Notes: generated by a model not told the origin, from the letters alone. DNA of 64,000 nt from an uncultured Blautia sp. (GCA_900551075.1 URVB01000011.1:34752-98751), one strand, 5' to 3'; counted from the first letter of the stretch, positions 1-35,582 are shown. Numbers and translations are program-made.

Positions 1-369
1 GAAAATGTGCTGACCTTCCTTCGCTTGACCGGAAAGCCGGAAGAAACACTGCTGGCAGTTTGCAGCTTTTCCGAAACATCTCATGAAGGGTATCAGGTAG
101 GAGTTCCGTTTTACGGAAAATACAAGGAAATCTTCAACAGTGACCAGAAGAAATACGGCGGTGCAGGCAAGGTGAATCCAAGAGCCAAAACCAGCAGGCG
201 GGAAGAATGCGATGAACGGGAGTATTCTTTGAAGTTAAGACTGCCGGCTTTTGGCATCAGTGTATTTGCCTGTACGCCGGATAGGAAGCCTTTGAAAAAA
301 GCGGCAGAAAGGAAGCCTCAGGCCAAAAAGAACCGACAAAAAGAAGGCGCCGTTAAGAAAAAAAGTTAA
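1..369 (+). CDS. glgB: 1,4-alpha-glucan branching enzyme, C-terminal fragment (5' end off-window)
   Basis: The C-terminal block pattern (..YQVGVP..GKYKEIFNSD.KKYGG.G..N......E.DEREYSLKLRLPAFGISVF) matches the conserved GlgB C-terminus. The ORF is open to the window edge. GC is about 50 percent. Confidence 0.55.
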   Translation, partial: ENVLTFLRLTGKPEETLLAVCSFSETSHEGYQVGVPFYGKYKEIFNSDQKKYGGAGKVNPRAKTSRREECDEREYSLKLRLPAFGISVFACTPDRKPLKKAAERKPQAKKNRQKEGAVKKKS

Positions 370-1101: not shown

Positions 1102-1248
1102 ATGGACAAGAGAAAATCAGAAAAGCAGCAGCGGAAGAAATCAAATGAAGAATTTAACAGTATCACGCAGAAAGTAAAGGTGGAAAACCAAAACCAGACA
1201 CATAATGTCCGGAAAGAAGGAATTGCTCCAATCAACCAGAAACGATGA
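1102..1248 (+). CDS. small hydrophilic basic protein (48 aa), minor-SASP-like
   Basis: Not in the ORF track because it is under 60 aa. ATG at 1102 is preceded by GAGGTG 6 nt upstream. Product MDKRKSEKQQRKKSNEEFNSITQKVKVENQNQTHNVRKEGIAPINQKR. Stop is followed by a perfect 7-bp hairpin GGCGGCC-TATTT-GGCCGCC (1249-1267). Confidence 0.3.
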   Translation: MDKRKSEKQQRKKSNEEFNSITQKVKVENQNQTHNVRKEGIAPINQKR

Positions 1249-1375
1249 GGCGGCCTATTTGGCCGCCTTTACCAGTGGAGGGAAAAGTATGGACAACAAG
1301 TGCAGCCGGAGCCAAGACGCAGGCAAAAGCGGCGGGAGTTGGTACTCAGTCCTATCTTTGCTGCTTAAAAGGTTA

Positions 1376-2671
1376 CTATGGTATCATGATCTTTACAATA
1401 AAAAAATTATGCTGTTCATAAATATCAATATGTCCATTATATTTTTGAACAATGCTAAAAATTTGTTGCATACCATAGCCGTGTTGTGTCTTATCCAATT
1501 TATTGCTGAGAAGAGGGCGATTATTATCTAAGACTGACTGGCATATTTTATTTCTGATTTCGAATATTTTGTAACCTGATAAACTATAGATTTCTGTTAT
1601 TATGTATCGATTTTGAATCTTTTCATTTCGTGAAGATTCTATGGCATTATCAAAGATATTTCCCAGTAAAGAACATAGGTCAAAATCTTCCATTGGTAAA
1701 TCAGTTATATCTTCAATATTTCCTAGAAATTTGATGTTACTCTCTCTTGATTGAGCAGCCTTAAGGTTAATTATATAATTAAGCATATTGTTAGATATGT
1801 GTATTTCTTCAGAGAACACTATCTTGCTGTTGCATATATTCTTAATATATTCAATTGCATTGTTGTATGTATGATTTTCTATGCAGTAAAGTATATGCAG
1901 AAGATGATTGTTTATATCGTGTTGTAGCCGCATTAATTTGTCATAATATTGTTTGGTGTCGCTTAATAAATCGTAATCAGATTTTCTCTTTTGACGAAAT
2001 AGTTCCAGTTCTGTTTCAATTTTAGCCTTATGACTCAATCTAGTATACGTATAGAATGCAATAAGGTTATTTACACAGAGGAAAAACATTAGAAACACAA
2101 TTACAATGTTTAGTTTTAGTGGTGGCTTATCAATTAATAGGTTCATACACATGCATATTGCGAATGTACTCATAAGACCAATTAATACCACCCACTTTAT
2201 ATTACTGGTATAGTTTTTGTTTTCATAGTGATCAGCTATATAAATATAAATTGTTATAAGCATAACTAAAGTTATTTTGGATAATATACACATGGCCATA
2301 TATTCCGGAGTGAATTCTTGAAGCAATTCAGGAATGTGCTTTTTTTTAACCAGATAAAATAAATTATATATCAATATATGATTTAGCATGAGAGTCTCGT
2401 AATATAATATACATGAAAAAAAACATCGTAATTTAGAAATTTTACAAAATCCCCAATATTGCATAATAATAAAAGATACGGCCATACATAATAAAATAGA
2501 AAATAATTTAAACCTCTTATTAATAAATAACGTTATACAAGTTAAAAAAATAGACAATAGGGTTAATCCCATTTTCTTTTCTGATACTCTGTAACCATTA
2601 AATTTTGCAAAAAATATTGAAGCAAGAATAGAATCATATAATGTTAAAAAGAAACGAAAAATACTGTACAT
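1376..2671 (-). CDS. AgrC/HPK10-type sensor histidine kinase (polytopic membrane N-domain plus GHKL ATPase)
   Basis: N-terminal 250 aa are hydrophobic with multiple TM helices. H-box RLQHDINNHL, N-box GNIFDNAIESS, G-box GYGMQQ. About 430 aa as in AgrC-like kinases. GC is very low. Confidence 0.75.
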   Translation of the reverse strand: MYSIFRFFLTLYDSILASIFFAKFNGYRVSEKKMGLTLLSIFLTCITLFINKRFKLFSILLCMAVSFIIMQYWGFCKISKLRCFFSCILYYETLMLNHILIYNLFYLVKKKHIPELLQEFTPEYMAMCILSKITLVMLITIYIYIADHYENKNYTSNIKWVVLIGLMSTFAICMCMNLLIDKPPLKLNIVIVFLMFFLCVNNLIAFYTYTRLSHKAKIETELELFRQKRKSDYDLLSDTKQYYDKLMRLQHDINNHLLHILYCIENHTYNNAIEYIKNICNSKIVFSEEIHISNNMLNYIINLKAAQSRESNIKFLGNIEDITDLPMEDFDLCSLLGNIFDNAIESSRNEKIQNRYIITEIYSLSGYKIFEIRNKICQSVLDNNRPLLSNKLDKTQHGYGMQQIFSIVQKYNGHIDIYEQHNFFIVKIMIP

Positions 2672-4425: not shown

Positions 4426-4432
4426 ATAATTA

Positions 4433-5864: not shown

Positions 5865-6785
5865 GTGAATGTGAGTCTGATCATACCTACTTATAATAAA
5901 AAGACCCGCCTGGCAATTATGCTGCAGTCGATTCGCAGGTTGAAATATGATAAGGACCTGGAAATAATTATAGTAAATGATGGCTCAAATGATGGTACGC
6001 AAAAGCTTGTGGAGGATTTTTGCCAGAATGTAAAATTAGGAGATGGAATGCATATAAAGTTGATTAGCACATCTAATCAGGGCAGATCGAAGGCAAGAAA
6101 TGTAGGAATAAAAGTGGCTGGTGGAGAATTGCTCATATTTACGGATGATGATCTTATCTTGAGCGACACTTTTGTTATAAATCATGTAAAAGAACATTTG
6201 GCATTGGACACTGCAGTTGTACATGGTCAAATATTAAGCCTTCCACAACTCAAATTTTTGGAGAATCCTGCCACAGGCCAGCAGTATGACGGAACATTGG
6301 CAAGTGAAAGAATGAGGCAATATTGTATTACACCGGATATGTTTGGTGAAGGGAGTATTCATCATTATCTTCAACATAATTCCAGAATCGGTAAATTTGA
6401 GAAGGATATAAGAGCGCTGTTTGAGCATACATCTGTTCATGATTCTTATATCCGTTGGATCGGGTTTACGGGGGGAAATGTATCCATAAGGAAGAAAAAT
6501 ATACCCATGGGTAATCTGTTCGATCCCGCGATGGGGAAAATTTGGGGATGTGAGGATTTGGAAGCTGGGTACCGTTTATTTCTAAATGGTATGAAATTTC
6601 TGTATGCACCTGCAGCCTGTAATTACCATATGAATCATTTCAGGGAGACATCTGTCAGTGAACATCGAGCTTCATTTAAATATTTTTATGACAAGCATAG
6701 AAACAAGGCAATAAAACAACTGGAAAAATATTTTGACAAAGATATTTCCACTTTGCTGGAATGGAAAAAGAGTTTAAATGAATGA
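5865..6785 (+). CDS. family-2 glycosyltransferase
   Basis: N-terminal GT-A signature LIIPTYNK...LEIIIVNDGSNDGT and a DXD-type motif (TDDDLI). Confidence 0.75.
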   Translation: MNVSLIIPTYNKKTRLAIMLQSIRRLKYDKDLEIIIVNDGSNDGTQKLVEDFCQNVKLGDGMHIKLISTSNQGRSKARNVGIKVAGGELLIFTDDDLILSDTFVINHVKEHLALDTAVVHGQILSLPQLKFLENPATGQQYDGTLASERMRQYCITPDMFGEGSIHHYLQHNSRIGKFEKDIRALFEHTSVHDSYIRWIGFTGGNVSIRKKNIPMGNLFDPAMGKIWGCEDLEAGYRLFLNGMKFLYAPAACNYHMNHFRETSVSEHRASFKYFYDKHRNKAIKQLEKYFDKDISTLLEWKKSLNE

Positions 6786-7593
6786 AAATATAATCATACA
6801 AAAGACAAGCGTTGAAGAAATACCTATCTTGTTTGTAAGACAAGATAATGCCGAAAGGAAAGAGGCTATTTTTGTACTTCATAAATTGTTATGTGATAAG
6901 ACCAGCGAATTGCCTTTGGCCTATGAATTGGCAAAAGAGGGCTATTTCGTAATTATTATGGATATCATGGGACATGGAGAAAGGAATACGCTTAAAGAGC
7001 ATAAGTACGATTTTCAAAATATGTTTTATGATGTGCGAAAGACAGTTGAAGATATAGGGAAAGTACTTCAGTATATACGGGATTCTGGTGAGAAGAAAAT
7101 TTCTTTAAACCATACAGGCGTAGTTGGTACATCTTTTGGTGCTTCAATTGCATTAATCGCAGGATATATGCTGAAGGAAATAAGTTATGTAGCCTGCCTT
7201 ATTGGTACATGTAATTTAAGGTACATCATAGAAAATAGAACTTTATGTGTATTCCGTCCGTTTTCACTTTCAAAAAATGTAATTGATTATGATAAAGTCA
7301 TTGATGAAATGGAAGAATTGGACTGCTTAAAAAATTACAATTCCGATAATCTAAAGCCGATGCTATTTCTGGACGGGAAGATAGATATGACAATTCCATA
7401 TAAGGAAAAAACTGAGTTTTACAGGGAACTTGAATCTATATTTTTGAAAGCTGGCAGAAAGGAGGATATCACATATCAATTTTATTCCAATACGGGACAT
7501 AAATTAAATGATGATATGATACATACCTTATTAGTATGGCTTAGGCATTTAAAACGGAATGTATCGGCAGAAAGGAAGTTTGAGAAGGATTGA
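6778..7593 (+). CDS. alpha/beta-hydrolase fold protein (possible thioesterase/esterase)
   Basis: GxSxG nucleophile elbow GTSFGAS, 271 aa, start overlaps the preceding gene. Confidence 0.6.
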   Translation: MNENIIIQKTSVEEIPILFVRQDNAERKEAIFVLHKLLCDKTSELPLAYELAKEGYFVIIMDIMGHGERNTLKEHKYDFQNMFYDVRKTVEDIGKVLQYIRDSGEKKISLNHTGVVGTSFGASIALIAGYMLKEISYVACLIGTCNLRYIIENRTLCVFRPFSLSKNVIDYDKVIDEMEELDCLKNYNSDNLKPMLFLDGKIDMTIPYKEKTEFYRELESIFLKAGRKEDITYQFYSNTGHKLNDDMIHTLLVWLRHLKRNVSAERKFEKD

Positions 7594-8579
7594 ATGAATC
7601 AACAAAGCTATTGACATTAATAAATGGATATAAAATATCAAATGCTTTCTTCTTGGCGGTTGAACATGGTTTGTTTGATTTTATAGATGGAAAAACGGAT
7701 CTATATGAAATTGCCGACCTCACAGAAACAGATGCAAGAGCACTGGAAATTATGTTGAGATTATTCGCTACCCTAGACCTGATTGAAGAGAAGCAGCCAT
7801 ACCGTTATAGTTTGAAAGAAGAGTATAAGAAGTTCCTGAAAAGTGATTCTATAAACAGTTATGTACCGTTGATCAAGTTGGAAAATTATTTATCTGAATT
7901 CCATACAAGTAAAAAAGCAATGGAACATTCCTTAGTTACAGGTACCGGGGAAGACTTATTTAATGAAAACAGCAAAGAAAATAAAGTTGGCATCTATGGA
8001 CAGGCCATGGACAATGGAGGAAGGTTTTCCTCTATGTGTATAGCGAGAGAGTTCCTTGGCTTAAAAGGCGGAAGGATATTGGATGTCGGGGGCGGTGTGG
8101 GAACCAACGTTATTCAGTTATGTAAGATGAATAAAACAGTTGATGTAGTCATCCTAGAGAAAAAAGAGATGGAGGATGCGTGTGTAAGTAATATCCATAA
8201 AAATAATCTGAATAACCGCATTCAGTTTAGAGAAGCTGATTTGAGAACTGTTACTATAGAAGGCCAGTATAAGGGAATTATTGTATCAAATATTCTGCAC
8301 CTGTTTAATGAAACTACCAATAAGCAATTATTAATGAAATTGGCATCCTGTTTGGAGAAGGATGGAATAATCGTATTTCATGACTTTTTTGTTGGGGGTG
8401 GTTTTTCACAGAAATTCATAGCTTCGATTTACTCGTTAGATTGGCTGATGCATGGTTCATATTTCTGCCTTCGTCCAGATGAATTGAAGTTATTGGTAGA
8501 ATCATACGGATTGAAAGTTGTAAAAAACAGGTATTATGAGAACATTCCAACTTCAATCATTGTAGCAAAAAAACCGTAG
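7590..8579 (+). CDS. class I SAM-dependent O-methyltransferase with N-terminal dimerisation domain
   Basis: Motif I ILDVGGGVGTN. N-terminal winged-helix-like dimerisation region typical of small-molecule O-MTs. ATGA start/stop overlap with the upstream gene. Confidence 0.7.
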   Translation: MNESTKLLTLINGYKISNAFFLAVEHGLFDFIDGKTDLYEIADLTETDARALEIMLRLFATLDLIEEKQPYRYSLKEEYKKFLKSDSINSYVPLIKLENYLSEFHTSKKAMEHSLVTGTGEDLFNENSKENKVGIYGQAMDNGGRFSSMCIAREFLGLKGGRILDVGGGVGTNVIQLCKMNKTVDVVILEKKEMEDACVSNIHKNNLNNRIQFREADLRTVTIEGQYKGIIVSNILHLFNETTNKQLLMKLASCLEKDGIIVFHDFFVGGGFSQKFIASIYSLDWLMHGSYFCLRPDELKLLVESYGLKVVKNRYYENIPTSIIVAKKP

Positions 8580-8604
8580 CATAATAGATAATGGATGGAA
8601 CAAT

Positions 8605-10155
8605 ATGAAAATGTTTATTATGGGATTGGATGGGGCTTCTTATCCACTAATATGTAAGTTTGTGAATGAAAATAAACTCCCCAATTTTAAAAAGCTATTA
8701 AAGGATAATAAGTTAAAAAAACTTATTTCCACTATTCCTCCGCATACGGCACCAGGATGGGTATCAGCATTTACCGGGGTACAGCCGGGGAAACATGGAA
8801 TATATCAGTTTTGGGATACACAGGCGGAAAGTTATTTAGGAAAGTTTATGGGGAGTAATGACTATGGTGTTGTTCCAGTATGGGAAATACTAAACCGCTT
8901 TGGCGTAAAGACCGGCCTTATTAACATACCGATGACTCATCCCCCGGAGAAGATTAATGGTTTTATGATGACCTGGCCTTTGTCTAATACATTGCGGTAT
9001 TCATATCCGGACCATTTATTACTGGATATAGCAGAGCATAACGGTCACTATGCATCGGATTTGAATCTTATGTATACGGGGGATGATAGTTATATTGAAA
9101 AATCGTTGGAAGTAACTAGGAAAAGGTTGCAGGCTGCAAAATATCTGATAAAGGAAAAAGAGTGGGAGCTGCTCGTCTGCGTTTTTACTGAAATTGACCG
9201 GATTTCACATTATTATTGGCACGACATGGAGCAGAGTCCTTCCAAATCAGAGGATGCCAAATCATTGTTAAGGAGCCATGCGATTGAAAAAATATATAGA
9301 GAGACAGATAAAGCGCTTGGAGAGATTCTCGAAATACTTACGGAAGACACATTGTTTTTGGTTATGTCTGATCACGGGTTTAGAAGAGGCGAATTCGATT
9401 TTTATATTCAGTCATTTCTGATGGAACATTCTATGTTGTATTTAAAACCGGCCGGACTTATTGCGGAGGAGGAAAGGCGATGCCTGAAAAACTCATGGTT
9501 TGCATGTATGGATAAAGGACAAGAATATTATGTGGACTGGTCGAAGACTATTGCATATATGGCATGTCCGGGATCTTACGGGGTAAATATCAACCTTCAG
9601 GGTCGTCAAAAGAAAGGGATTGTTAAAGCAGAAGAATACGAACGGGTAAGAAGTCAGGTTATTGCATGCATCAGTTCCGCAACGTTACCCGGAACGAATA
9701 TTCCCATGTTTGAACAGGTGGTCAGAAGAGAAGAGATTTATCACGGAGGAAGGATTAAAGATGCACCCGATATTCTTATGATTCCCAGTAGCTACGGTAT
9801 TATGGTGCACCATAAGATCGTGCCGGGAACTCTGTACGGAAGACCGGAACAGAACGGACTTCATGACAGAGCAGGGATTTTGGGATTATATGGAAAATCT
9901 ATAAATTATAAAATAATGAAAGAAGATATATACCTGGAAGATATTGCCCCAACTATATTAAATTATTTTGGTCTTGCCAAAGGTGATTATATGGATGGAG
10001 CATCAATATGTAATTTTAACCGGGGTGCACTTATTCCTTGGGAATATCCTTTAGAGGGATTAGAACGTTATAGCCAGGAAGACAGTATTTCCGGGTATAC
10101 GGAACAAGAGAAACTGGAAGCAGAAGAAAAGCTTAAGGCTTTAGGTTATTTATAA
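8605..10155 (+). CDS. alkaline-phosphatase-superfamily protein, type I phosphodiesterase/nucleotide pyrophosphatase-like (paralogue 1)
   Basis: N-terminus FIMGLDGASYPL followed by TIPPHTAPGWVSAFTG, matching the NPP/PF01663-type metal-site and Thr-nucleophile blocks. No TM segments. Confidence 0.55.
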   Translation: MKMFIMGLDGASYPLICKFVNENKLPNFKKLLKDNKLKKLISTIPPHTAPGWVSAFTGVQPGKHGIYQFWDTQAESYLGKFMGSNDYGVVPVWEILNRFGVKTGLINIPMTHPPEKINGFMMTWPLSNTLRYSYPDHLLLDIAEHNGHYASDLNLMYTGDDSYIEKSLEVTRKRLQAAKYLIKEKEWELLVCVFTEIDRISHYYWHDMEQSPSKSEDAKSLLRSHAIEKIYRETDKALGEILEILTEDTLFLVMSDHGFRRGEFDFYIQSFLMEHSMLYLKPAGLIAEEERRCLKNSWFACMDKGQEYYVDWSKTIAYMACPGSYGVNINLQGRQKKGIVKAEEYERVRSQVIACISSATLPGTNIPMFEQVVRREEIYHGGRIKDAPDILMIPSSYGIMVHHKIVPGTLYGRPEQNGLHDRAGILGLYGKSINYKIMKEDIYLEDIAPTILNYFGLAKGDYMDGASICNFNRGALIPWEYPLEGLERYSQEDSISGYTEQEKLEAEEKLKALGYL

Positions 10156-10165
10156 AAGGAGATTT

Positions 10166-10801
10166 ATGTTTAGCCCATATACAGGAAAGATATATTCAAA
10201 TCAGGAAGTATTGGAGGCAGCCGGGAAGTATCACGGTCAAATTCAAGTAATAAAACATGTAAATAAATATAAAAATGCTGCTAAGTCGATTGCTGAAGGA
10301 AAAATTATCGGTTGGTTCCAAGGCAGGTCCGAGGTTGGGCCAAGGTCACTGGGGAATCGGAGCCTGTTGGCAGATCCGAGAAATCCACAAATGAAAGATA
10401 TTATAAACTACAGAGTAAAATTTAGAGAGGCTTTTCGTCCATTTGCGCCATCTGTACTGTATGAATATCAACAAGAATATTTTGATCTGGATATTCCATC
10501 TCCTTATATGCTGATGGTGGCAGATATCTGGCCTGAGAAACGGGAACAGATTCCTTCTGTAACCCATATAGATGGAACCGGGAGATTGCAGACGGTCGTA
10601 AAGGGTATGAATCCTGTTTACTACGAACTCATTCATCATTTCTATAAATTAACGGGTGTTCCGGTTTTATTAAATACTTCGTTTAATGTGAATGGAGAAC
10701 CGATTGTGGAAACGCCAGATGACGCAATCAAATGTTTCCTGCATTCGGATTTTGATGAACTTTATGTAGAAGACGTATTGGTAACAAAAATAAAGAATTA
10801 G
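10166..10801 (+). CDS. carbamoyltransferase C-terminal (YrdC-like, carbamoyl-adenylate-forming) domain as a stand-alone ORF
   Basis: Contains GRSEVGPRSLGNRSLLADPR, FRPFAPSV, THIDGTGRLQTV and LNTSFNVNGEPIVETPDDAI, the conserved blocks of the NodU/CmcH/TobZ C-domain. Confidence 0.7.
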   Translation: MFSPYTGKIYSNQEVLEAAGKYHGQIQVIKHVNKYKNAAKSIAEGKIIGWFQGRSEVGPRSLGNRSLLADPRNPQMKDIINYRVKFREAFRPFAPSVLYEYQQEYFDLDIPSPYMLMVADIWPEKREQIPSVTHIDGTGRLQTVVKGMNPVYYELIHHFYKLTGVPVLLNTSFNVNGEPIVETPDDAIKCFLHSDFDELYVEDVLVTKIKN

Positions 10802-10817
10802 CAGAAGAGGAAAATAT

Positions 10818-11819
10818 ATGTATATTCTTGGATTAGGCGGATCGAATCATGATTTTTCAAGTTGTCTTATAAAAGATGGAGAGATACTGTCCATCATTGA
10901 AGAAGAAAGAATCACAAGAAAAAAGCATGGAATAGGTCTTGGTGTCAGCTTGGCGAAAGGATTATCTGTAAAGTATTGCTGTGAAGCAGCGGGAATAGAA
11001 TTTGGTGATATTGATCTTGTGATAGGAAATGAAATTTTAAATAAAGTTATGTACAGGAGAATGCAGCAAGAGGTGATACTAATTAATCACCATCTTGCAC
11101 ATGCTGCCAGTTGCTTTTATCCTTCACCGTTTCAGGATGCTGCAATATTAGTGGCGGATTCTGTAGGAAGCAAAAAATTAGATAGAGGAGAATGTCTGTA
11201 CGAGTCTGTATCTTTTGCAGTAGGGAATGGGAATGAAATTCATATTAAAGAGAATATTTCGGGCAGAAATATGAAAGAGACGGATCTCATTGAGAATTCC
11301 CTTGGGATTTTTTATTCGGTTATAACGCAGATCATTGGCTTTGGAGAACACCAGGAAGGAAAGACAATGGGACTGGCGCCTTATGGAACAAATAAATATT
11401 ATCATTTGATGAAACAGCACATCAGATGTATCGGAGATGGAAGAATAGAAATGAAAGAGGAAGACATAAGACAGTTGTTCACTTACAAAGATATCATAGA
11501 TACTGCAAGCGAAAATAAAAAGGCGGAAATAAAAGCAGACTTTGCATATGCGGCACAGCAGGTTTTGGAAGAATGTATGCTGTATTTATGTAGACATCTG
11601 AAGAAGCTGACAAACAAGAAAACATTGTGTCTGGCCGGTGGAATTGCCCTGAATAGTGTGGCTAATTATAGAATTTATAAAGAAAAGATATTTGAACAAA
11701 TATTTATACAGCCAGCCTGCGGGGACAATGGGACATCGATCGGAAGTGCGCTTTATGGACATTACGCAGTTATGGGACAAAAGCGTAATGTTGGAAGGAG
11801 AGACAGAGGTGAATTATGA
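10818..11819 (+). CDS. carbamoyltransferase N-terminal (Kae1/ASKHA-like) domain as a stand-alone ORF
   Basis: MYILGLGGSNHDFSSCLIKDGEILSIIEEERITRKKHG, HHLAHAASCFYPSPF, ILVADSVGS and QPACGDNGTSIGSALY match the NodU/CmcH N-domain. Confidence 0.7.
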   Translation: MYILGLGGSNHDFSSCLIKDGEILSIIEEERITRKKHGIGLGVSLAKGLSVKYCCEAAGIEFGDIDLVIGNEILNKVMYRRMQQEVILINHHLAHAASCFYPSPFQDAAILVADSVGSKKLDRGECLYESVSFAVGNGNEIHIKENISGRNMKETDLIENSLGIFYSVITQIIGFGEHQEGKTMGLAPYGTNKYYHLMKQHIRCIGDGRIEMKEEDIRQLFTYKDIIDTASENKKAEIKADFAYAAQQVLEECMLYLCRHLKKLTNKKTLCLAGGIALNSVANYRIYKEKIFEQIFIQPACGDNGTSIGSALYGHYAVMGQKRNVGRRDRGEL

Positions 11820-13099
11820 AAAAATTGTTTGTCATATCTTTTGAAGGGTTGAATTATAAACTGTTAACAGAATTTATGGAGATGGGAAATTTACCTAATT
11901 TTAAAAGAGTATCTATTGAAGGCGGTCTTGAAGAGATAAATTGCAGCAGAATTCCATATGAAGCGTCCGGCTTGGTGAGTGCCCTCTCAGGTAAGGAGGA
12001 TTCTGAACACGGAGTGTTTTCTTATTGGCGTACCCGAAACCGTGATTACCGTCCGGAGGTATATCAGTCAGAGGATGTTAAGCATCATATGTTCTGGAAC
12101 CAGAGATTCTGTAAGGGATATAGGGTTGGAATAGTCAACGTTTTTGGAACTCATCCGGTTTATAAAGTAGACGGAGTACTGATAAGTTATGCTATGAATC
12201 GCACATTGAGGTATGCTTTTCCGCCGGATTTAATGAGAAGGCTTACAAAAAGCGGATTTGGTTATGTGCAGGATATGGGGGCATTTTATAAAAATGACGG
12301 AAAGGAATCTTTGCTCAAGCAAGTCATCAAGGTGGAAAAGATGAGGCACGCAATATGTCAGGAACTCTACAAGGATGATTTGGATGTATATGTCATAAAT
12401 TATACCTGCATTGACCGTGTCTGCCATTTCTTCATGGATGAGCTAAAAGATGATGCAATGCCACTGGAGGAAAAAGCCGTCTATAGAATGTATCAGCTCA
12501 GCGATGAGATACTGGGAGACATACTTCAATATGTTGATGCACATGGCAGTGAACTCATTCTCTTTTCATCTGTAGGTTTTGGAGAACTGGAGAAATTTGT
12601 GGAGATTAATCCTTATTTGGAAAAAGAGGGATTCTTAAAAAGAGTGTCGGAGCGTGGCATTGATTTTGATCATACGCTGGCATTTGAGGCACCTCAGGGA
12701 GTTCATGGCATTAATATTAATACAGAAGATTTTTATGCCAGAGGAATTGTAAAAGCTGATAATTACAATATTGTTTTAAGTGAAGTTGCAGATGCTCTTA
12801 GACAGATGATAAATCCTTATAATAAAAAACCAATGTTCGCACAAGTAGCTAAAGGGAAAGAATTTTATCAGGGAAACAAGGAAGCTCCCGATTTGATACT
12901 GGAGCCTTATGACTGGAATTATCTTCCCTATGGAGATAATTACTGGGCTGATATCGTAGGGCGGCATAATCAAACTGGATGGCATAGGAATAAAAGTGTT
13001 TGGGGAAGGATGGGATACCATATGAATCAGGAAGCCTTTCAACAAGTGAGCTGTTTAAAAGATATTTACCGGGAAATAGAAAGAACAATTCTTATTTAA
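11816..13099 (+). CDS. alkaline-phosphatase-superfamily / NPP-like protein (paralogue 2, divergent active-site positions)
   Basis: N-terminus LFVISFEGLNYKLL..LPNFKR parallels paralogue 1. By-eye alignment puts Glu/Ala where paralogue 1 has the Thr nucleophile. Confidence 0.5.
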   Translation: MKKLFVISFEGLNYKLLTEFMEMGNLPNFKRVSIEGGLEEINCSRIPYEASGLVSALSGKEDSEHGVFSYWRTRNRDYRPEVYQSEDVKHHMFWNQRFCKGYRVGIVNVFGTHPVYKVDGVLISYAMNRTLRYAFPPDLMRRLTKSGFGYVQDMGAFYKNDGKESLLKQVIKVEKMRHAICQELYKDDLDVYVINYTCIDRVCHFFMDELKDDAMPLEEKAVYRMYQLSDEILGDILQYVDAHGSELILFSSVGFGELEKFVEINPYLEKEGFLKRVSERGIDFDHTLAFEAPQGVHGININTEDFYARGIVKADNYNIVLSEVADALRQMINPYNKKPMFAQVAKGKEFYQGNKEAPDLILEPYDWNYLPYGDNYWADIVGRHNQTGWHRNKSVWGRMGYHMNQEAFQQVSCLKDIYREIERTILI

Positions 13100-13106
13100 G
13101 TTTAAT

Positions 13107-13871
13107 ATGAAGGAGATATTTATGAGTAATACAGAATCTCATAAAAGGGTGGCGTTTGTATCAGGCAGTACGGCCGGAATTGGGTTAGCTGTAGTAAAAG
13201 CGCTGTTGGAAGAAGGGTATACGGTAATCGGAAATTCAAGAAAGCGAAAAGAAGAATTAAATCATGAGTTTGGACAATTGCTCGACCAATCACCCAATTT
13301 ACAGTACATTGAGGGAGATGTAACGAGAGAGGATGACACAGTTTCCATATTTACGAAGATAAAGAAGTATTTTGGGCGTATTGATATTTTGGTTAATAAC
13401 GTAGGAGCAACACAGAAGAAACCGCTGCTAAGAATATCCGGGAAGGAATTTGAAGAGAGTCTCAGACAAAATTTAATGGGAGCATTTTATTGTACGAAAC
13501 AAGCAATCGGTATCATGATGATACATAAATACGGGCGAATTATTAATATTAGTTCTATGGCTGGCGTTCATGGACTTGCGTTTGAAGCCGGTTATTCTGC
13601 ATCTAAAGCGGGACTAATCGGATTTACGAAGGCAGTTGCAAAAGAGTATGGTAATAAGGGAATTACATGTAATACGATTGCTCCCGGGATTATTCATAAA
13701 ACAGATAGCCATGAGAAAGAGGTTGTTCGGTCGGGTGCGCTTTCAGCAATTATTGTAAAACGAACGGGACGAGCTGATGAAGTGGCACATTCTGTAATAT
13801 ATCTTGCGTCGGAGCGGGCCGGTTACATTACAGGCGAAACAATAGAAATTAATGGTGGTTTATTTATATAA
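13107..13871 (+). CDS. short-chain dehydrogenase/reductase (FabG-like ketoreductase)
   Basis: Cofactor motif GSTAGIGLA and catalytic S...YSASK. Confidence 0.75.
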   Translation: MKEIFMSNTESHKRVAFVSGSTAGIGLAVVKALLEEGYTVIGNSRKRKEELNHEFGQLLDQSPNLQYIEGDVTREDDTVSIFTKIKKYFGRIDILVNNVGATQKKPLLRISGKEFEESLRQNLMGAFYCTKQAIGIMMIHKYGRIINISSMAGVHGLAFEAGYSASKAGLIGFTKAVAKEYGNKGITCNTIAPGIIHKTDSHEKEVVRSGALSAIIVKRTGRADEVAHSVIYLASERAGYITGETIEINGGLFI

Positions 13872-13891
13872 TAAAAGAGAGGTAAATACTT

Positions 13892-14989
13892 ATGAACAAA
13901 GAAAAGAAAAAAGTATTGTTTACAAACTTGATGATTAAAGAGGACACTTGTGATTCTTTTTGTAAATACTGCTATCATCGTGACGAAACAAAATCAACAG
14001 ATACATATGCTTATGACTGCAAATTGAAGATCAATATTGATAAAGCAGTAAAGTTTGCAACGACATATTTTAATAGCCCTATTATTAAGATATGTGGGGG
14101 TGAAATCTTTCTGATGTCTAATCTTGAGGAGTTTGTTGTGGAACTGTTAAAACATTTCTCCTATGTATTGATTCAGACGAACGGCCGACATCTGAATGAT
14201 CAGAATTTAAAATGGATTATTGCGTTGAAAAGGGTGATGCTTCAGGTTTCGTTAGACGGGCATGATTTGGAGATGAATGCCTATCGCTTTGAAAAAGCGG
14301 AAATTATGGAGAATATTCTATATGCAATAGAAAAATTAAAAGCAAATGATGTGTATATCGAGCTTACCTGCGTCTTAAATAATAAAAATACAAAGCGATT
14401 TGATGAATACGTGAAATATATGAGGGAACTACCGGGAGGCAGGGCGAGAAATACATTAAAAATCACACCAATTCTTATTATTGATAAAGAGAATTTGTTT
14501 AAACCTTGCAAGGAAGATCTGAAAGCAATTGATGGCATTATTAAGGATTATGAGAAATATGCTGATGTTTTGCCTCCTAAAAAATATATGGAGATGCTGA
14601 ATAAAGTAATGCATGGGGAGACAATTAAATACCAATGTTTTAATCCGATTGTAAGTCTTAACATGGTGAATGATGGAAGAGTTAAAAGTTGCACGAATGT
14701 GTTGCCGGAAAATGTTCTGAATATCGGAAATATGTTTGAAGACGATCCGGAGGTAATTTTGAAAAGATATGGAGACACTAAATTTCAGAAATTATTACTC
14801 TATACAAAACAATGGGTGCCAATTTGTAAGAATTGTTTCAACTTCTGCAGTATTTATAATCTATATCTAAACGATACAATTTCATTGGATGAGCTCTGTA
14901 ATAATAATTATATGTTTAATATACCAGAAGTCAGACAACGGCTACTGGAATTGCACGATATGATTGATGAAGCCAAAATCAGAGTTTAA
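13892..14989 (+). CDS. radical SAM enzyme with C-terminal SPASM/twitch-like cysteine cluster
   Basis: CDSFCKYC (Cx3Cx2C), GGE motif ICGGEIFL, C-terminal CKNCFNFCS and other Cys pairs. Confidence 0.7.
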   Translation: MNKEKKKVLFTNLMIKEDTCDSFCKYCYHRDETKSTDTYAYDCKLKINIDKAVKFATTYFNSPIIKICGGEIFLMSNLEEFVVELLKHFSYVLIQTNGRHLNDQNLKWIIALKRVMLQVSLDGHDLEMNAYRFEKAEIMENILYAIEKLKANDVYIELTCVLNNKNTKRFDEYVKYMRELPGGRARNTLKITPILIIDKENLFKPCKEDLKAIDGIIKDYEKYADVLPPKKYMEMLNKVMHGETIKYQCFNPIVSLNMVNDGRVKSCTNVLPENVLNIGNMFEDDPEVILKRYGDTKFQKLLLYTKQWVPICKNCFNFCSIYNLYLNDTISLDELCNNNYMFNIPEVRQRLLELHDMIDEAKIRV

Positions 14990-15154
14990 TCATCATTATT
15001 AAAAATTACATAGTACTATCTCGGGATTCGGAATGCCATTAGTCGAACATATAAAAGTGCTAATAAATCGGTAACTTTTATCAGAAAAAAACTGCTTATA
15101 AACAATAGATGAAAAATTTCCAGAGATTATATATACAGTAAGGGGGAGAAAAAT

Positions 15155-15955
15155 ATGGATCACATGAAGCTATTAGAGAATGAGAGCCTTTACATTATAC
15201 GAGAAGCGTTCAGCCGCTGCAGGAATTCCGGGATGTTATGGTCCATTGGAAAAGATTCAACAACACTTCTGTGGTTGATCAGAAAAGCGTTTTATGGAAA
15301 AATTCCTTTTCCCATTATCCATATAGACACTGGGTTTAAATTTAAAGAGATTTATGAATTCAGAGATTATTATGCAAAAAAGTGGAATTTAGATCTCATA
15401 GTATATAAAAATATGGATGCAATAGAGCGGGGGATGCATCCGGATTATGGCAAGTTGGAATGTTGCACACAACTGAAAACAAATGCGTTGAAGCAGGTAA
15501 TAGAACAAAAAGGATTAGATGCAGTTTTCTTAGGAATTCGCAGAGATGAACATGGAATAAGAGCAAAGGAGCGTGTATTTTCTTTGCGGGATGAAGAATT
15601 CGAATGGAATTACAAGGCACAATCTCCAGAGTTTTGGAGCCAGTATAAGACAAGGGCTGGAAGCAAAGAGCACTTGAGGGTTCATCCGATACTGGGCTGG
15701 ACGGAACTGGATATCTGGAGTTATATAGAGAAAGAAAAAATTCCATTTGTGGACTTATATCTTGCCAGGGATAATCAAAGATACCGGAGTATTGGATGTG
15801 AAACCTGCTGCAATCCAGTTGTTTCTACAGCAGATTCTGTGGAAAAGATTATTTGTGAATTGCAGAACACCAATATATCGGAGAGGAGTGGAAGGGCTCA
15901 GGATAAAGAATCCGATTATATGATGCAAAAATTGAGATCACTTGGATATATGTGA
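15155..15955 (+). CDS. cysD: sulfate adenylyltransferase subunit 2
   Basis: LENESLYIIREAF...MLWSIGKDSTTLLWLIRKAFYGKIPFPIIHIDTGFKFKEIYEFRD closely parallels the CysD/NodP N-terminal PAPS-reductase-fold blocks. Confidence 0.8.
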   Translation: MDHMKLLENESLYIIREAFSRCRNSGMLWSIGKDSTTLLWLIRKAFYGKIPFPIIHIDTGFKFKEIYEFRDYYAKKWNLDLIVYKNMDAIERGMHPDYGKLECCTQLKTNALKQVIEQKGLDAVFLGIRRDEHGIRAKERVFSLRDEEFEWNYKAQSPEFWSQYKTRAGSKEHLRVHPILGWTELDIWSYIEKEKIPFVDLYLARDNQRYRSIGCETCCNPVVSTADSVEKIICELQNTNISERSGRAQDKESDYMMQKLRSLGYM

Positions 15956-15971
15956 AGAAGAGAGGATATAG

Positions 15972-17210
15972 ATGGAAAAAGAAAAACTAAAAATCGTGAT
16001 AGTAGGTCATATTGATCACGGTAAGTCAACTTTGATTGGAAGATTATTATTTGATACAAATTCTATTACCAGGGATAAGATTGAGGAAGTAAAGAAAATA
16101 TCTGAACAGGCAGGTCAAAAATTTAATTTTGCATATTTACTGGATTATTTGCAGGAAGAACGGAATCAGGGGATTACGATTGATACGACACAGATGTGTT
16201 TTAGTTCTGAGAAAAAGGATTACGTAATCATTGACGCTCCGGGACATGTTGAATTTATCAAAAATATGGTAACAGGAGCTTCCCAGGCGGAATTGGCTAT
16301 TCTGATTGTAGATGCGCTGGAAGGTTGCAAAGAGCAGACAAAAACACATGCATACATTCTATCCATGCTCGGGATAAAAAATATTATCGTAGCTGTGAAT
16401 AAAATGGATCTTGTTTCATATGAAGAAGAAGCGTTCTTAAGAATAAAAAGAGAACTGGATGAGTTCCTATCCACGCTGAATCTGACAGTGAATTGCTATG
16501 TTCCCGTATCTGCACTGGAAAAGGATAATGTGGTAGTTAAATCGGAGCAGATGGATTGGTATGGTGGGAATACGCTGCTTCAGTGTCTGGATACTTTTAC
16601 AAAACCAATAGCAGAGTTAAATAAAACAGTTCTGTTCCCCATACAGGATGTCTATCGCATTGAAGAAAAGCGTATCATGGTTGGAAGATTAGAGTCTGGA
16701 ACCTTAACAACAAATGATGAAGTCACGATTCTTCCATCCAATGTTAAGACCCGGATAAAAACGATTGAAAAATTCATGGAGAAGACTGCCAAAGGTCTTA
16801 CTGGTGAATGTATTGGCATAACGACAAAGGACTCTGTGTTTATGGAACGGGGCCACATTGTATGTACGGATGAGAGTAATTTAGCAGTTACGGATTCCTT
16901 TCAAGCAAAATTATTCTGGATTTCATCGGAAAAGCTTCGCATAGGAGAAACGGCTAAAGTGCAGTGTGCAACGCAGGAGTCGTCTATGGAAATAAAAGAA
17001 ATAACCAGTAAGATAGACGCTTCTACTTTACAAAGTGTTGAAGGTGACGCAGATATTATAAAACCACTTGAAGTATGTCAGGTTGTTATACATACTAAAA
17101 ATCCACTTGTTGTAAGTGATATAAATGAGCTGATTGCAATAAAAAGAATCGTTATTCTGAAGAACGATACAATATGTGGTGGCGGGATTATTACGAATGT
17201 GAGCGTGTGA
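15972..17210 (+). CDS. cysN: sulfate adenylyltransferase subunit 1 (GTPase, no fused APS-kinase domain)
   Basis: GHIDHGKSTLIGRLL P-loop, DAPGH and NKMD GTPase motifs. 412 aa, so the CysC domain is absent. Confidence 0.8.
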   Translation: MEKEKLKIVIVGHIDHGKSTLIGRLLFDTNSITRDKIEEVKKISEQAGQKFNFAYLLDYLQEERNQGITIDTTQMCFSSEKKDYVIIDAPGHVEFIKNMVTGASQAELAILIVDALEGCKEQTKTHAYILSMLGIKNIIVAVNKMDLVSYEEEAFLRIKRELDEFLSTLNLTVNCYVPVSALEKDNVVVKSEQMDWYGGNTLLQCLDTFTKPIAELNKTVLFPIQDVYRIEEKRIMVGRLESGTLTTNDEVTILPSNVKTRIKTIEKFMEKTAKGLTGECIGITTKDSVFMERGHIVCTDESNLAVTDSFQAKLFWISSEKLRIGETAKVQCATQESSMEIKEITSKIDASTLQSVEGDADIIKPLEVCQVVIHTKNPLVVSDINELIAIKRIVILKNDTICGGGIITNVSV

Positions 17211-17211
17211 T

Positions 17212-18489
17212 ATGGGAAGAAAGCAATTCTTATTAGGCATTGACGGTTTGCCCTATAATCTTATCCAAAAGTTTATAGGGGATTATGGAATGTATAATCT
17301 AAAGGAACTGTTAAACAGAGGGAGTTGTAAAGCGATTAATTCTGTTTATCCCGTGATTTCATCGGTTGCATGGACAAGCTACGCAACAGGTCAAAACCCT
17401 GCATATCATAATATCTTTGGCTTTATCGATAGACAGCCCCGGCCATTTTCTATTGAGATACCGACTGCAAGACAGCGCCGGGGAAAAACGATTTGGCAGA
17501 AGCTTTCGGAAGCAGGAAAAAAGGTAATCGTAATGAATGTGCCTTTGACTTATCCACCCCAGAAAATAAACGGTATTATGGTATCTTGTTTTTTGAGTCC
17601 TAATTTAGACAAAGCATCTTATCCTCAAGAAATCAGTCAGTATCTGAAAGACCGGCATTATATTTTGGATGTAGATGCGAATTTGGCAAGAAAAGATAAG
17701 ATGCAGTTTATCATAGAGCTGATTCGCATTATGAAAACACGTTTTCAGGTCTGCTTTGAACTTATTGAGAACGAAGAGTGGGATTTCACACAATTACATA
17801 TTATGGAAACAGACAGATTGTTTCATTTCTTATGGGATGAGCTGAATGATGTCAGTAAAAACAAATATTCTCCACTTATAAAAGAGTTTTTTGCAGTCCT
17901 GGATCAGAATATTGGGGAAATGTGCAGGAGACTGAATAATTGTTCAGGAATCACATTCCTGTCGGACCATGGGTTCTGTGGAATCAAGTATGAAGTTCAG
18001 ATGAATCTCTGGCTGGAGGAGTTGGGTCTGTTGAAATTTAATGAGGGAGGACAGAAAGGGTTTAGGAGTTTGCATGAGGAGTCAATATGTTATTCACTAT
18101 TGCCAGGCAGATTTTATATCAATTTGGAAGGCCGGGAAGAAAAAGGGGTGGTAAAAGAAGAAGATTACATGGATACATGTAGGATGATAAAAGAAAAGCT
18201 TTTGTCTATGAGAGATCAGGATGGTAATAATGTGATTGATCGAGTTTATTTCAAAGACGAAATTTATAGTGGTCCTTATCTGAAAGATGCTGCAGATATC
18301 ATTGCTCATCCTGTAGACGGTTATGACTTGAAAAGCGGGTTTGGTGAGCCGTATGTGTTTAGCAGAGGACATCTCAACGGAATGCATACATATGAAAATG
18401 CAACAGTATTTTCAACCGATTTAAATTTGAATGATGTTTATGCCATTACAGATATTTCTGCACGGTTAATGGAGGTAATGGACGGATGA
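17212..18489 (+). CDS. alkaline-phosphatase-superfamily / NPP-like protein (paralogue 3)
   Basis: LLGIDGLPYNLIQKF...VYPVISSVAWTSYATG resembles paralogues 1 and 2. Start overlaps the cysN stop. Confidence 0.5.
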   Translation: MGRKQFLLGIDGLPYNLIQKFIGDYGMYNLKELLNRGSCKAINSVYPVISSVAWTSYATGQNPAYHNIFGFIDRQPRPFSIEIPTARQRRGKTIWQKLSEAGKKVIVMNVPLTYPPQKINGIMVSCFLSPNLDKASYPQEISQYLKDRHYILDVDANLARKDKMQFIIELIRIMKTRFQVCFELIENEEWDFTQLHIMETDRLFHFLWDELNDVSKNKYSPLIKEFFAVLDQNIGEMCRRLNNCSGITFLSDHGFCGIKYEVQMNLWLEELGLLKFNEGGQKGFRSLHEESICYSLLPGRFYINLEGREEKGVVKEEDYMDTCRMIKEKLLSMRDQDGNNVIDRVYFKDEIYSGPYLKDAADIIAHPVDGYDLKSGFGEPYVFSRGHLNGMHTYENATVFSTDLNLNDVYAITDISARLMEVMDG

Positions 18490-30591: not shown

Positions 30592-30652
30592 CTGTTAAGA
30601 ATGTGAAATAGATAAATAAAGAAGAAGTAAATTTAAATTAGAAGGAGACACA

Positions 30653-31633
30653 ATGCTCAATTTATCTTATGTAAATTATTATATACCGGAAATGTATGTT
30701 TCCCTTAAAAAAGTATTAGAGGAAAGCACAAATTTCTCTTTACCACCTTCTTACGCTACTTATACGGATTATAGTAATGCACTGAAAAAAGAAACACATT
30801 TGGATAAGATCTCTGTTATGGAAAAAGAGAAGTTGCTTGAAGAGTCTGTAAAACTAGTGGAACAATTTCTTTATGAAACAGGAATTAATCCTGATTATAT
30901 TGCCGGTGTGGTTCATACAGATCCAGTTCCATTTAATGCTATTGTAAATAATAATATCAGCATTCTGCATTATATTATAGAAAAATTTAAATTAAAAAAT
31001 GCAGCAGCATGTATACTGCAGCAACAATGTACTGGATTTATTATGTCCTTTGCCCTGGCGGAAGGTATGCTTAGAGAAGGCGAATATCTTCTCATACTTT
31101 CGTCAAGTTGTATTGATTCACTTAGGTTTCGTAATTTGGGTTTTACCTGCATGGGTGATGGACTAGGATTGGCTGCGGTCTCTAAAAAACCTTCAAAATG
31201 GAAGATTGTCGATATGATTGCTAAAACATCGGGGAAAAACACATACAGAGTTGGCAATGGCAAGGATGCTATAGTTTCAAAGGATCGCATGGAGATTATA
31301 AAGCAAGGTGTACATGTAATAGAAGAATTATTAAAAGGAAATCAGGTTGATGCAAAGGAACTCTATAAATTTGTGCCACAAAATATTAATTATACGTTAT
31401 ATCAGTTTATATATGCGAGAATGCTCGGAATTAAAGAAGAGGCTATGTATGTGCAAAATATTCCGAATGGCGGACATGTTGGAGATGTTGATTTGATTAG
31501 AAATTTGACAACGTTAGAGAAGGAAGATAACATTCCGAATAATTCCTATGTTCTAATATATGGACTTGGCTCAAATGGTCTTGACATGTCCTATGCAGCC
31601 GCTCTGCTAAAATATAATATTTCGGAGCAATGA
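30653..31633 (+). CDS. KAS III (FabH)-like thiolase-fold protein
   Basis: NAAACILQQQCTGF corresponds to the FabH active-site Cys block. C-terminal NIPNGGHVGDVD and IYGLGSNG correspond to the FabH His/Asn and GFGGG regions. Confidence 0.5.
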   Translation: MLNLSYVNYYIPEMYVSLKKVLEESTNFSLPPSYATYTDYSNALKKETHLDKISVMEKEKLLEESVKLVEQFLYETGINPDYIAGVVHTDPVPFNAIVNNNISILHYIIEKFKLKNAAACILQQQCTGFIMSFALAEGMLREGEYLLILSSSCIDSLRFRNLGFTCMGDGLGLAAVSKKPSKWKIVDMIAKTSGKNTYRVGNGKDAIVSKDRMEIIKQGVHVIEELLKGNQVDAKELYKFVPQNINYTLYQFIYARMLGIKEEAMYVQNIPNGGHVGDVDLIRNLTTLEKEDNIPNNSYVLIYGLGSNGLDMSYAAALLKYNISEQ

Positions 31634-31689
31634 AAAAAATAATGGGATTTGAGAAATCTATACCAATGGCATGCACAGAAGTCTGACTG

Positions 31690-33572: not shown

Positions 33573-33586
33573 GAAAAAGGTTTTAT

Positions 33587-34369: not shown

Positions 34370-34388
34370 AAGGGCAATAGAAAGATAT

Positions 34389-35423: not shown

Positions 35424-35582
35424 ATATAAGTCGTTTGTTGTACTTAGAACGCACTCATTTTAAACTACGTTAGAGTAATGACCAATATGGTATATATAGC
35501 AATTTGAGGAGGCTCTCAGAAGAAAGGAGATACTGTTTGGAAGCAATATTTTATTTTGCTTAATATATAGCAGGAAACAATT

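Follow-up and report, generated by a model that had tools for sequence, protein, structure and literature searches.

An alkaline-phosphatase-fold protein family linked to sulfate activation, seen from a biosynthetic gene cluster of an uncultured Blautia sp.

Three AlkP-fold proteins and a sulfate-activation gene pair

The stretch analysed here, 64,000 nucleotides from an uncultured Blautia sp. (URVB01000011.1:34752-98751; referred to below as the window), carries three genes for proteins of the alkaline phosphatase (AlkP) fold, P1, P2 and P3, which are interleaved with a split carbamoyltransferase and with the sulfate-activation genes cysD and cysN (Table 1). An earlier note on this DNA had remarked on the association of such proteins with sulfate activation, and the AlkP-fold family is indeed tied to sulfate activation far beyond the window, across bacteria and archaea. 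The three open reading frames (ORFs) that the note had assigned to PF01663-like proteins are real, and all score far above the cut-off of that family; the proteins are 23-27% identical to one another. Since the first core strand, which bears a metal-binding Asp, starts at residues 4-11 in each of them, an N-terminal signal peptide is impossible and the proteins must be cytoplasmic, as had been proposed.

Catalytic residues were placed by alignment with orthologues and with phosphonoacetate hydrolase (PhnA). P1 (D9, T48, D198, H202, D256, H257, H420) and P3 (D11, S50, D201, H205, D252, H253, H392) have the complete PF01663 two-metal site, i.e. six ligands and a Thr or Ser nucleophile, and P2 does not: it has E10 for the metal Asp, E49 for the nucleophile and S252-V253 for the Asp-His pair, and keeps the other metal site (D200, H204, H390), so that one metal site and the nucleophile are lost. 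The claim that only P1 retains the Thr block is therefore literally correct, P3 having Ser50 and P2 Glu49 at this position, but it is misleading as a sign that P3 has degenerated. Likewise, the idea that the divergent paralogues are specificity or scaffold subunits fits P2, which is degenerate and conserved, and fails for P3, the most conserved of the three, with its full metal site and Ser nucleophile. The nucleophile segment reads PPHTAPGW in P1 and ISSVAW in P3, and in neither is there a formylglycine C/S-x-P-x-R motif as in PF00884 sulfatases. The Asn that contacts the phosphoryl group in the nucleotide pyrophosphatase/phosphodiesterase (NPP) of Xanthomonas (Xac NPP N111) corresponds, judged by eye from the motif spacing, to an invariant Phe in P1 (F69) and P3 (F71) and to a Tyr in P2 (Y70).

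The catalytic residues of P1 are invariant in 28 orthologues. Its AlphaFold2 (AF2) model has a mean predicted local distance difference test score (pLDDT) of 89.6; among solved folds PhnA, NPP and PafA come closest, with 10-15% identity, and a phmmer sequence search with P1 against the PDB gave no match. Against PF00884, P1 reaches 18.5 bits (cut-off 25) over the DHG segment only, and its orthologues also match this family weakly. The AF2 model of P3 has a pLDDT of 88.3, and a profile search of the PDB with the P3 family found PhnA as the sole match, over the N-terminal 100 residues.

In the carbamoyltransferase between P1 and P2 the domain order is permuted, the ORF for the C-domain (10166-10801) being followed by one for the second half of the N-domain (10818-11819), whose stop is overlapped by the start of P2; the sub-operon order is P1, split carbamoyltransferase, P2. 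The same split and permuted layout is present in a related locus (L008), and another (L009) has a full-length carbamoyltransferase together with additional separate N and C pieces. P2, which is without the C-terminal LGY tail described below, has an orthologue in L008 that is of the same length, 65% identical and separated by a nonsynonymous divergence (dN) of 0.25, similar to the values for P1 and P3; because synonymous divergence (dS) was saturated, dN alone was compared. Given this orthologue of equal length, its identity and a dN like that of P1 and P3, P2 is not decaying, and we take it to be a catalytically degenerate, putative pseudoenzyme under purifying selection.

The genes between P2 and P3 code for a short-chain dehydrogenase/reductase, a radical S-adenosylmethionine (SAM) protein, CysD and CysN. 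CysD, which is 36 residues shorter than its E. coli counterpart, has the PP-loop SIGKDS, and CysN has the G motifs GHIDHGKST, DAPGH and NKMD; against TIGR02034 the latter scores 335.8 bits, 0.3 below the cut-off of 336.1, and archaeal EF-1alpha models give 341.7 bits. The two adjacent genes are predicted to encode an intact heterodimeric ATP sulfurylase acting on sulfate, and the CysDN pairs linked to P3 are of a compact, uniform 266/410-aa type. P3 is translationally coupled to cysN: the earlier note had let it begin at the cysN stop codon, which is right as to adjacency and slightly off in position, the ATG at 17212 standing one base beyond the TGA (17208-17210).

Enzymes that could carry adenosine phosphosulfate (APS) further were searched for in two ways. 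A Pfam scan covered 58 ORFs, nearly all non-overlapping window ORFs of at least ~110 aa (it left out the plus-strand ORFs 7..369 and 1205..1531 and ORFs nested in or opposite larger genes), and phmmer was run on the six-frame stop-to-stop ORFs of the window with verified queries for APS kinase, Sat and sulfotransferase and unverified queries for CysQ and pyrophosphatase (PPase). The CysC query had been checked against E. coli K-12, and the PPase query recovered known haloarchaeal genes. No APS kinase (PF01583), either free-standing or fused to CysN, was found among the window ORFs or six-frame translations, nor was Sat found by the two methods; CysQ was absent from the 58 ORFs and from the phmmer search with the unverified query. 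A canonical sulfotransferase (PF00685/PF13469; Sulfotransfer_1/3) dependent on 3'-phosphoadenosine phosphosulfate (PAPS) had no Pfam match among the scanned ORFs, and phmmer with three confirmed sulfotransferases found none in the window; a search for the 5'-phosphosulfate-binding and 3'-phosphate-binding (5'-PSB/3'-PB) motifs covered related loci only. The absence of an APS kinase and of a canonical sulfotransferase, which the earlier note had already reported, was thus borne out. Because Pfam scans of the window revealed no APS reductase or sulfite reductase, CysDN is not for assimilation here.

Table 1. Coordinates of the features discussed, counted from the first nucleotide of the window
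Feature	Coordinates	Strand	Evidence and remarks
Low-GC biosynthetic gene cluster around the putative sulfation module	5865..49826	+	Long, tightly packed; Pfam
P1, AlkP-fold protein, 516 aa	8605..10155	+	PF01663, E 1.6e-38, 133.6 bits (cut-off 23)
P1 C-terminal tail, ...YTEQEKLEAEEKLKALGYL	10078..10152	+	~residues 492-516; flexible linker and short helix, CysD-like
Split, permuted carbamoyltransferase between P1 and P2	10166..11819	+	PF16861, E 2.5e-72; PF02543, E 6.1e-41
P2, AlkP-fold protein, 427 aa	11816..13099	+	PF01663, E 4.3e-21, 76.3 bits (cut-off 23)
CysD, sulfate adenylyltransferase small subunit, 266 aa	15155..15955	+	NF003587, 347 bits (cut-off 195)
CysD native C-terminal tail, ...YMMQKLRSLGYM	15875..15952	+	Homologous to E. 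coli CysD ...MELKKRQGYF
CysN, GTPase subunit, 412 aa	15972..17210	+	PF00009 and C-terminal domains; no APS-kinase domain
P3, AlkP-fold protein, 425 aa	17212..18489	+	PF01663, E 1.2e-35, 124.1 bits (cut-off 23)

Genomic linkage of P3, a shared C-terminal tail and residue 117

P3 belongs to a family of more than 1,800 homologues (sequence clusters) of ~50% identity from Clostridia, Omnitrophota, Calderihabitans, WOR-3 and others, which has ~75 invariant positions and is annotated only as 'AlkP superfamily phosphohydrolase/phosphomutase' (COG3379-like). The subfamily signature comprises D11, S50-S51, W54, H66, F71, R74, N109, T113, Y114, H196, E199, D201, R202, H205, D252, H253, C256, R300, R308, D362, D372, K374, H392 and T393, among them the invariant Ser50-Ser51 pair and five invariant basic residues (R74, R202, R300, R308, K374). 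Every one of these signature residues is present in the window P3, combined with operonic linkage to CysDN. A search of genome contigs with P3 returned four distant loci. In a literature search no description was found of a PF01663/COG3379 protein as a sulfotransferase, a phosphatase of 3'-phosphoadenosine 5'-phosphate (PAP) or an APS-dependent enzyme.

Neighbouring genes were classified in 80 metagenome loci centred on P3 orthologues, and about 100 related loci were compared overall. Among ~90 sampled loci, CysD-CysN lies directly upstream of P3 in 35, mostly with gaps of 0-50 nt, and an APS-kinase-like ORF takes this place in 38 loci, 29 of them with a well-scoring ORF and the rest with a weak or truncated one; four of these ORFs (three full-length and the truncated form of L074) were checked with Pfam. 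Sat stands beside the kinase in 12 kinase-type loci, many of the others, as well as L050, having no sulfurylase nearby, and no classified locus holds both CysDN and CysC. Taken together, ~73 of ~80 informative loci, from different phyla and cluster types, link P3 to CysDN or CysC.

The cassette CysD (266 aa)-CysN (~410 aa)-P3 recurs in polysaccharide loci of Calderihabitans and of an Omnitrophota metagenome-assembled genome (MAG) and in relatives of the present cluster in Dorea, Clostridiaceae and gut metagenomes. It is usually accompanied by one or two longer AlkP proteins and, in the loci first inspected, by neither a kinase nor a sulfotransferase; no CysDN-type P3 locus has a canonical sulfotransferase within 10 kb, and one of them (L035) has no other recognisable candidate for consuming APS. 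A TauE-type permease is often found between cysN and P3, with a PiT-type transporter at the equivalent place on the Halopiger megaplasmid, and DUF2061 proteins accompany the cassette in L001 and L002. Among the first 91 loci, no CysQ/IMPase-like or DHH-like ORF was detected, and none of the bacterial P3 loci had a family-I pyrophosphatase. A Saprospiraceae MAG (L007, 5925-8567) encodes an 880-aa protein in which a PF01663 AlkP domain at the N-terminus is followed by TPR repeats and, at the C-terminus, by a canonical sulfotransferase domain, a putative Rosetta-stone link between the two enzyme types. In haloarchaea (L092, L094, L095), the P3-type gene is widely conserved and single, its products being 33-36% identical to the window P3 and 64-80% identical to each other; Halopiger pHALXA01, where it occurs with CysD-like, PiT, sulfatase-like and GT4 genes, is the sole such setting among the haloarchaea examined.

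In L051, L060, L074, L083, L086 and L088 the upstream ORF is a truncated APS-kinase-like one of 153-163 aa with the P-loop GLFGKGKT, which matches only the first 68 positions of PF01583 and retains the LGY tail. It stands between a 460-aa AlkP gene and P3, the same loci encode two canonical sulfotransferases, and the product may be a non-kinase adaptor. Twelve loci had at first been considered devoid of activation genes; most proved to hold a truncated ORF of this kind.

P1 and CysD end in a similar sequence (Table 1). The tail, whose consensus in L001-L091, L093, L097 and L098 is ...(E-rich)...RL[KR]xLGY[LIM]-COOH, was counted as the C-terminal motif [LMW]GY[hydrophobic, or Ser/Ala] in the 3,099 ORFs of the first 91 loci. 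It is present in all 34 CysD, 33 of 37 APS kinases (CysC), 29 of 35 non-P3 AlkP proteins of at least 485 aa, 12 of 18 PF00884 sulfatase-like proteins, all seven DUF2061 proteins and 3/3 copies of a 77-aa protein, and absent from P3-type proteins (0/89), Sat (0/10), CysN (0/31; the window CysN has no tail either) and canonical sulfotransferases (0/10); other ORFs carry it in 6 of 2,809 cases, five of which are fragments of tailed families. Halopiger, an archaeon, shows the same distribution: its long AlkP, sulfatase-like and CysD-like proteins are tailed and its P3 is not. Since E. coli CysD ends in ...MELKKRQGYF, the tail is native to CysD, and since E. coli CysC is without it, the kinases, long AlkPs and sulfatase-like proteins have acquired a CysD-like tail. 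In P1 (...KLKALGYL), L510, G514 and Y515 are invariant among orthologues. The last ~45 residues of the P1 model are of low confidence and detached: residues 471-480 still average 78, the block means from residue 481 are 51, 49, 66 and 50, residues 489-496 and 514-516 fall below 50, and an isolated helix spans 500-512. The distribution suggests that the tail marks proteins that make or take APS, and of all the evidence it speaks most strongly for a place of P1, besides P3, in the sulfate pathway. Candidate receptors are another tail, CysN and P3; the tail resembles, in our estimation, the acidic-hydrophobic tails of the ribosomal stalk that bind EF-1alpha-like GTPases.

The type of activation gene upstream is reflected within P3 itself. 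In all 36 CysDN-linked proteins, residue 117 (window 17560-17562), which comes next after the invariant loop N109-V-P-x-T-Y-P-P, is Glu, or Gln in the case of the window P3; in 38 of 39 kinase-linked ones it is Arg or Lys, among them one P3 that otherwise has the CysDN-type His366. Positions 89, 263, 327 and 366 also co-vary with the context. H366 was tried as a marker of CysDN-linked P3 and dropped on account of exceptions such as L078, residue 117 being the better correlate. As an acid or amide occurs where only APS is made and a base where PAPS is made, we infer that residue 117 may face the 3'-OH or 3'-phosphate and would tell the two nucleotides apart at their 3' position, Glu/Gln matching APS and Arg/Lys matching PAPS.

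A possible sulfation module and competing explanations

In the standard route of sulfation, ATP sulfurylase is followed by APS kinase and then by a PAPS-dependent sulfotransferase. The reading that we prefer, and to which we assign a probability of roughly 0.5, is that the region constitutes a self-contained AlkP-fold sulfation module that stops at APS, in place of APS kinase and PAPS sulfotransferase. CysDN would make APS, the cluster encoding no route onward to PAPS, and P1 would dock to the activation machinery by its CysD-like tail. With its Thr48/two-metal centre, P1 would pass the sulfuryl group of APS on to a hydroxyl of the product, itself derived from a sugar or an aminocyclitol, and a covalent sulfo-enzyme intermediate is probable; P3 (Ser50) would act on the donor side, on adenosine phosphosulfate, as a second, substrate-universal sulfotransferase or in a sulfuryl-relay step. 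Such a universal transfer or relay role is preferred for P3 because it fits the CysDN-only, Sat/CysC and sulfotransferase-containing contexts together with the switch at residue 117. P2 would assist without catalysing, perhaps as a partner of P1 or of the split carbamoyltransferase next to it, and the product would be both sulfated and carbamoylated.

If any of the three is a hub or donor-side component, it looks like P3, and P1 looks like a candidate acceptor-specific catalyst, i.e. a sulfotransferase. P1-type proteins of 35-64% identity that retain the tail are encoded at the head of related clusters of Cytobacillus kochii and Pseudomonas sp. CCOS 191, and because these stand without P3, P1 has no strict need for an adjacent P3; these hosts presumably make APS with their housekeeping enzymes. 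This fits a CysD-CysN-P3 donor-supply cassette that gut Clostridia carry along and a P1 that acts as tailoring enzyme. Within the AlkP-fold family there is probably a sulfate-transferring enzyme of a new kind. More tentatively, and with the odds somewhat against it, the data might reflect a second sulfation system of bacteria and archaea, in which AlkP-fold sulfotransferases (P1 and other long PF01663 proteins, together with sulfatase-like ones) use APS in CysDN-type and PAPS in Sat/CysC-type loci within a metabolon built by the CysD-derived tail, and the tail-less P3 serves as common catalytic or organising partner whose residue 117 sets APS versus PAPS.

Several points weigh against the preferred reading. 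Sulfuryl transfer by PF01663 proteins is a chemistry that we infer from the observed gene content, conservation, linkage, residue patterns and tail; NPP-type chemistry normally attacks phosphorus and with APS would merely release sulfate. A cysC gene could lie elsewhere in the source genome, its absence being established within the 64-kb window, and the correlation at residue 117 may stem partly from shared ancestry. The C. kochii and Pseudomonas clusters are without CysDN or P3 within 10 kb of the P1-type gene, and the latter encodes a weak sulfotransferase-like protein. The conservation of P3 is extreme, which is unusual for an acceptor-specific transferase; canonical sulfotransferases occur together with P3 in at least eight loci, all kinase-type or unclassified (with the gene order ST-ST-ST-P3 in L050 and ST-CysC-P3 in L059, ST denoting sulfotransferase); and in Natrinema and Natronomonas the haloarchaeal P3-type core gene adjoins an inorganic pyrophosphatase gene (ppa) outside any sulfation locus. 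These last three observations would suit an accessory hydrolase that removes PAP or PAPS, like the 3'-phosphatase CysQ, or the pyrophosphate (PPi) of the sulfurylase, the sulfotransferase being P1 or encoded elsewhere. The very high conservation implies a substrate that is probably universal, the Ser nucleophile and the five invariant Arg/Lys would suit this role, and the lack of CysQ and PPase genes in bacterial P3 loci is compatible with P3 filling it, without being proof. For a PF01663 gene in a Pyrococcus sulfation cluster, PPi degradation has been guessed (PMC8268124), but that cluster already has a proven pApase adjoining the PF01663 gene. Moreover, CysDN-type loci make no PAPS and therefore no PAP from sulfation, the kinase-type loci without a nearby sulfurylase, and L050, have no source of PPi at hand, and a PPi-specific enzyme would not be expected to exchange Glu for Arg/Lys at residue 117. 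We therefore regard an accessory hydrolase as doubtful.

It is improbable that P1-P3 are ordinary phosphohydrolases or phosphomutases of phosphorylated sugar intermediates, with CysDN nearby by chance or for sulfur supply. The ROK kinase and HAD domain of the cluster, the annotation of these proteins, which is solely 'AlkP superfamily phosphohydrolase/phosphomutase', the standard two-metal site of P1 and P3 and the P1-type proteins without CysDN in Bacillus and Pseudomonas clusters would be in line with such a role, but it leaves unexplained the linkage of P3 to CysDN/CysC in nearly all informative loci and a CysD-like tail that P1 has in common with APS kinases, and the missing reductases speak against an assimilatory CysDN. 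Very little probability is given to P3 as a replacement of APS kinase that would phosphorylate the 3'-OH of APS via phospho-Ser50, with PPi from CysD or another donor, so that the cluster makes PAPS. P3 occupies the usual gene position of cysC or of a CysN-CysC fusion, in translational coupling with cysN, transphosphorylation through phospho-Ser is textbook chemistry of the AlkP fold (alkaline phosphatase, cofactor-independent phosphoglycerate mutase, phosphopentomutase), and removal of both products would pull the unfavourable sulfurylase step; yet P3 directly follows a CysC-like ORF in 38 loci (full-length in 29), where this function would be redundant, and the window has no canonical sulfotransferase to consume PAPS. 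A role as cytoplasmic sulfatases, which would take off a transient sulfate (pro-drug activation or a leaving group) installed by an unrecognised enzyme, is just as unlikely. The superfamily does include sulfatases, and the weak PF00884 matches of P1 orthologues point the same way, but the nucleophile is Thr or Ser in place of a formylglycine motif, no other enzyme of the window could install sulfate, and tethering a sulfatase to the activating enzyme by a CysD-like tail makes little sense.

The surrounding cluster and comparison with known systems

Besides the genes described above, the low-GC cluster, which is of an antibiotic type, encodes, according to Pfam, GT2, PIG-L, radical SAM, B12-radical SAM, DegT, Gfo/Idh/MocA and ROK proteins, DAHP synthase, DHQ synthase and DHQase II, adenylation-thiolation (A-T) didomains, acyl carrier proteins (ACPs), an AMP-ligase and a KASIII-like protein, and further its own SAM synthetase, an electron transfer flavoprotein (ETF) pair, a phosphopantetheinyl transferase (PPTase) and two BtrH_N-like proteins. 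Its GC content is 0.30-0.41 compared with 0.46-0.50 in the flank from 50 kb onward, where nadB/nadC/nadA, an ABC transporter and a PEP-utilising enzyme are located (50000-64000); upstream (1-5400) there are a tRNA gene (446-518) and LytTR-type regulators with a GHKL kinase. The low GC content, the preceding tRNA and these regulators suggest that the cluster is an acquired island under quorum-type control. Related clusters occur in gut Clostridia assemblies, and CysN was found on 82 contigs of gut-metagenome assemblies. A scan for promoters and terminators gave fewer matches than shuffled sequence and no informative site. A 586-aa protein (25381-27141) consists of a HAD phosphatase domain fused to a radical-SAM domain, a fusion kept in L011, L018 and L022. 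A 296-aa protein (19885-20775) shows only a faint methyltransferase/'Dimerisation' signal and comes after P3, with an optional AMP-ligase in between, in L008, L009, L011, L018 and L022.

The findings suggest that bacteria and archaea share an AlkP-fold component of sulfation which is uncharacterised so far, that there are modules which use APS only and that a portable docking tail has been derived from CysD. If the proposed reading is correct, a widespread AlkP-fold family, which comprises over 1,800 sequence clusters and has members in gut Clostridia, Omnitrophota and haloarchaea, would perform or support sulfation by a different fold, and half of the loci would sulfate without APS kinase. 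Sulfated glycans and natural products of organisms without recognisable sulfotransferases would then be accounted for. A CysDN-P3 or CysC-P3 cassette plus an LGY tail would be a genome-mining marker for sulfated products and a source of PAPS-independent biocatalysts, and DUF2061 and the large annotation class 'alkaline phosphatase family protein' would gain a first functional context. For the present cluster, which is common in gut metagenomes, a sulfated, carbamoylated metabolite of aminocyclitol type would be predicted. As a whole the cluster resembles, we believe, the pactamycin-type aminocyclopentitol pathway; at the level of gene types, it and the ptm genes presumably have in common a glycosyltransferase, a PIG-L deacetylase, radical SAM and B12-radical SAM methyltransferase, DegT aminotransferase and Gfo/Idh/MocA genes, and also carbamoyltransferase, AMP-ligase, KASIII-like, ACP and shikimate-branch genes. 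To our knowledge, pactamycin carries no sulfate, and CysDN and AlkP genes are missing from its cluster.

In fold, six metal ligands and Thr/Ser nucleophile, P1 and P3 are like Xanthomonas NPP/ENPP1 and PhnA, their best structural matches. They differ from these enzymes in large cap insertions, in their cytoplasmic location and in a context of sulfate activation instead of nucleotide or phosphonate catabolism, and at TM-scores of ~0.5-0.65 they share only 10-16% identity with the nearest solved structures (PhnA, NPPs and PafA), from which we conclude that they are not ordinary NPPs. The earlier note's view of them as something other than housekeeping phosphodiesterases has thus held, all the more as the island contains neither cysC nor a canonical sulfotransferase. 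Agl7 (HVO_2046) of Haloferax volcanii, which is needed for sulfation of dolichol-phosphate-hexose, was suspected to be a PF01663 member; it is not named among the best 120 haloarchaeal matches, and it was not used as evidence. The sulfatase-like proteins Agl30 and Agl31 of Halobacterium salinarum are, according to deletion and heterologous expression, required for glycan sulfation and sufficient for it on transfer to Haloferax (PMC11980604). LGY-tailed sulfatase-like proteins of this kind accompany P3-type genes in Halopiger and in bacterial loci; Agl30 and Agl31 belong to the PF00884 branch, whereas P1-P3 are PF01663 proteins, so that the comparison is one of superfamily and co-occurrence only. 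In Pyrococcus yayanosii and Thermococcus onnurineus a sat-pApase(DHH)-PF01663-cysC cluster has been described, of which the pApase is characterised and the PF01663 product was only guessed by the authors to degrade PPi (PMC8268124). A PF01663 gene between sulfurylase and APS kinase recalls by its layout the Sat-(AlkP)-CysC-P3 loci found here.

A close parallel is with the rhizobial Nod system, in which NodP and NodQ are a dedicated extra CysD/CysN in a biosynthetic locus, feeding sulfation of a GlcNAc-derived molecule, and a NodU-type carbamoyltransferase stands alongside; in Mesorhizobium, DUF2061 sits with nodH, nodP and nodQ. The likeness to Nod-factor tailoring by NodU and NodPQ, to which the earlier note had drawn attention, is a plausible analogy. 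NodQ has an APS kinase as one of its domains, and sulfate transfer falls to NodH, a canonical PAPS sulfotransferase, whereas in the window AlkP-fold proteins stand in the place of both. Dedicated modules for sulfate activation and transfer are thus already known as a kind, and it is the AlkP-fold version that would be new.

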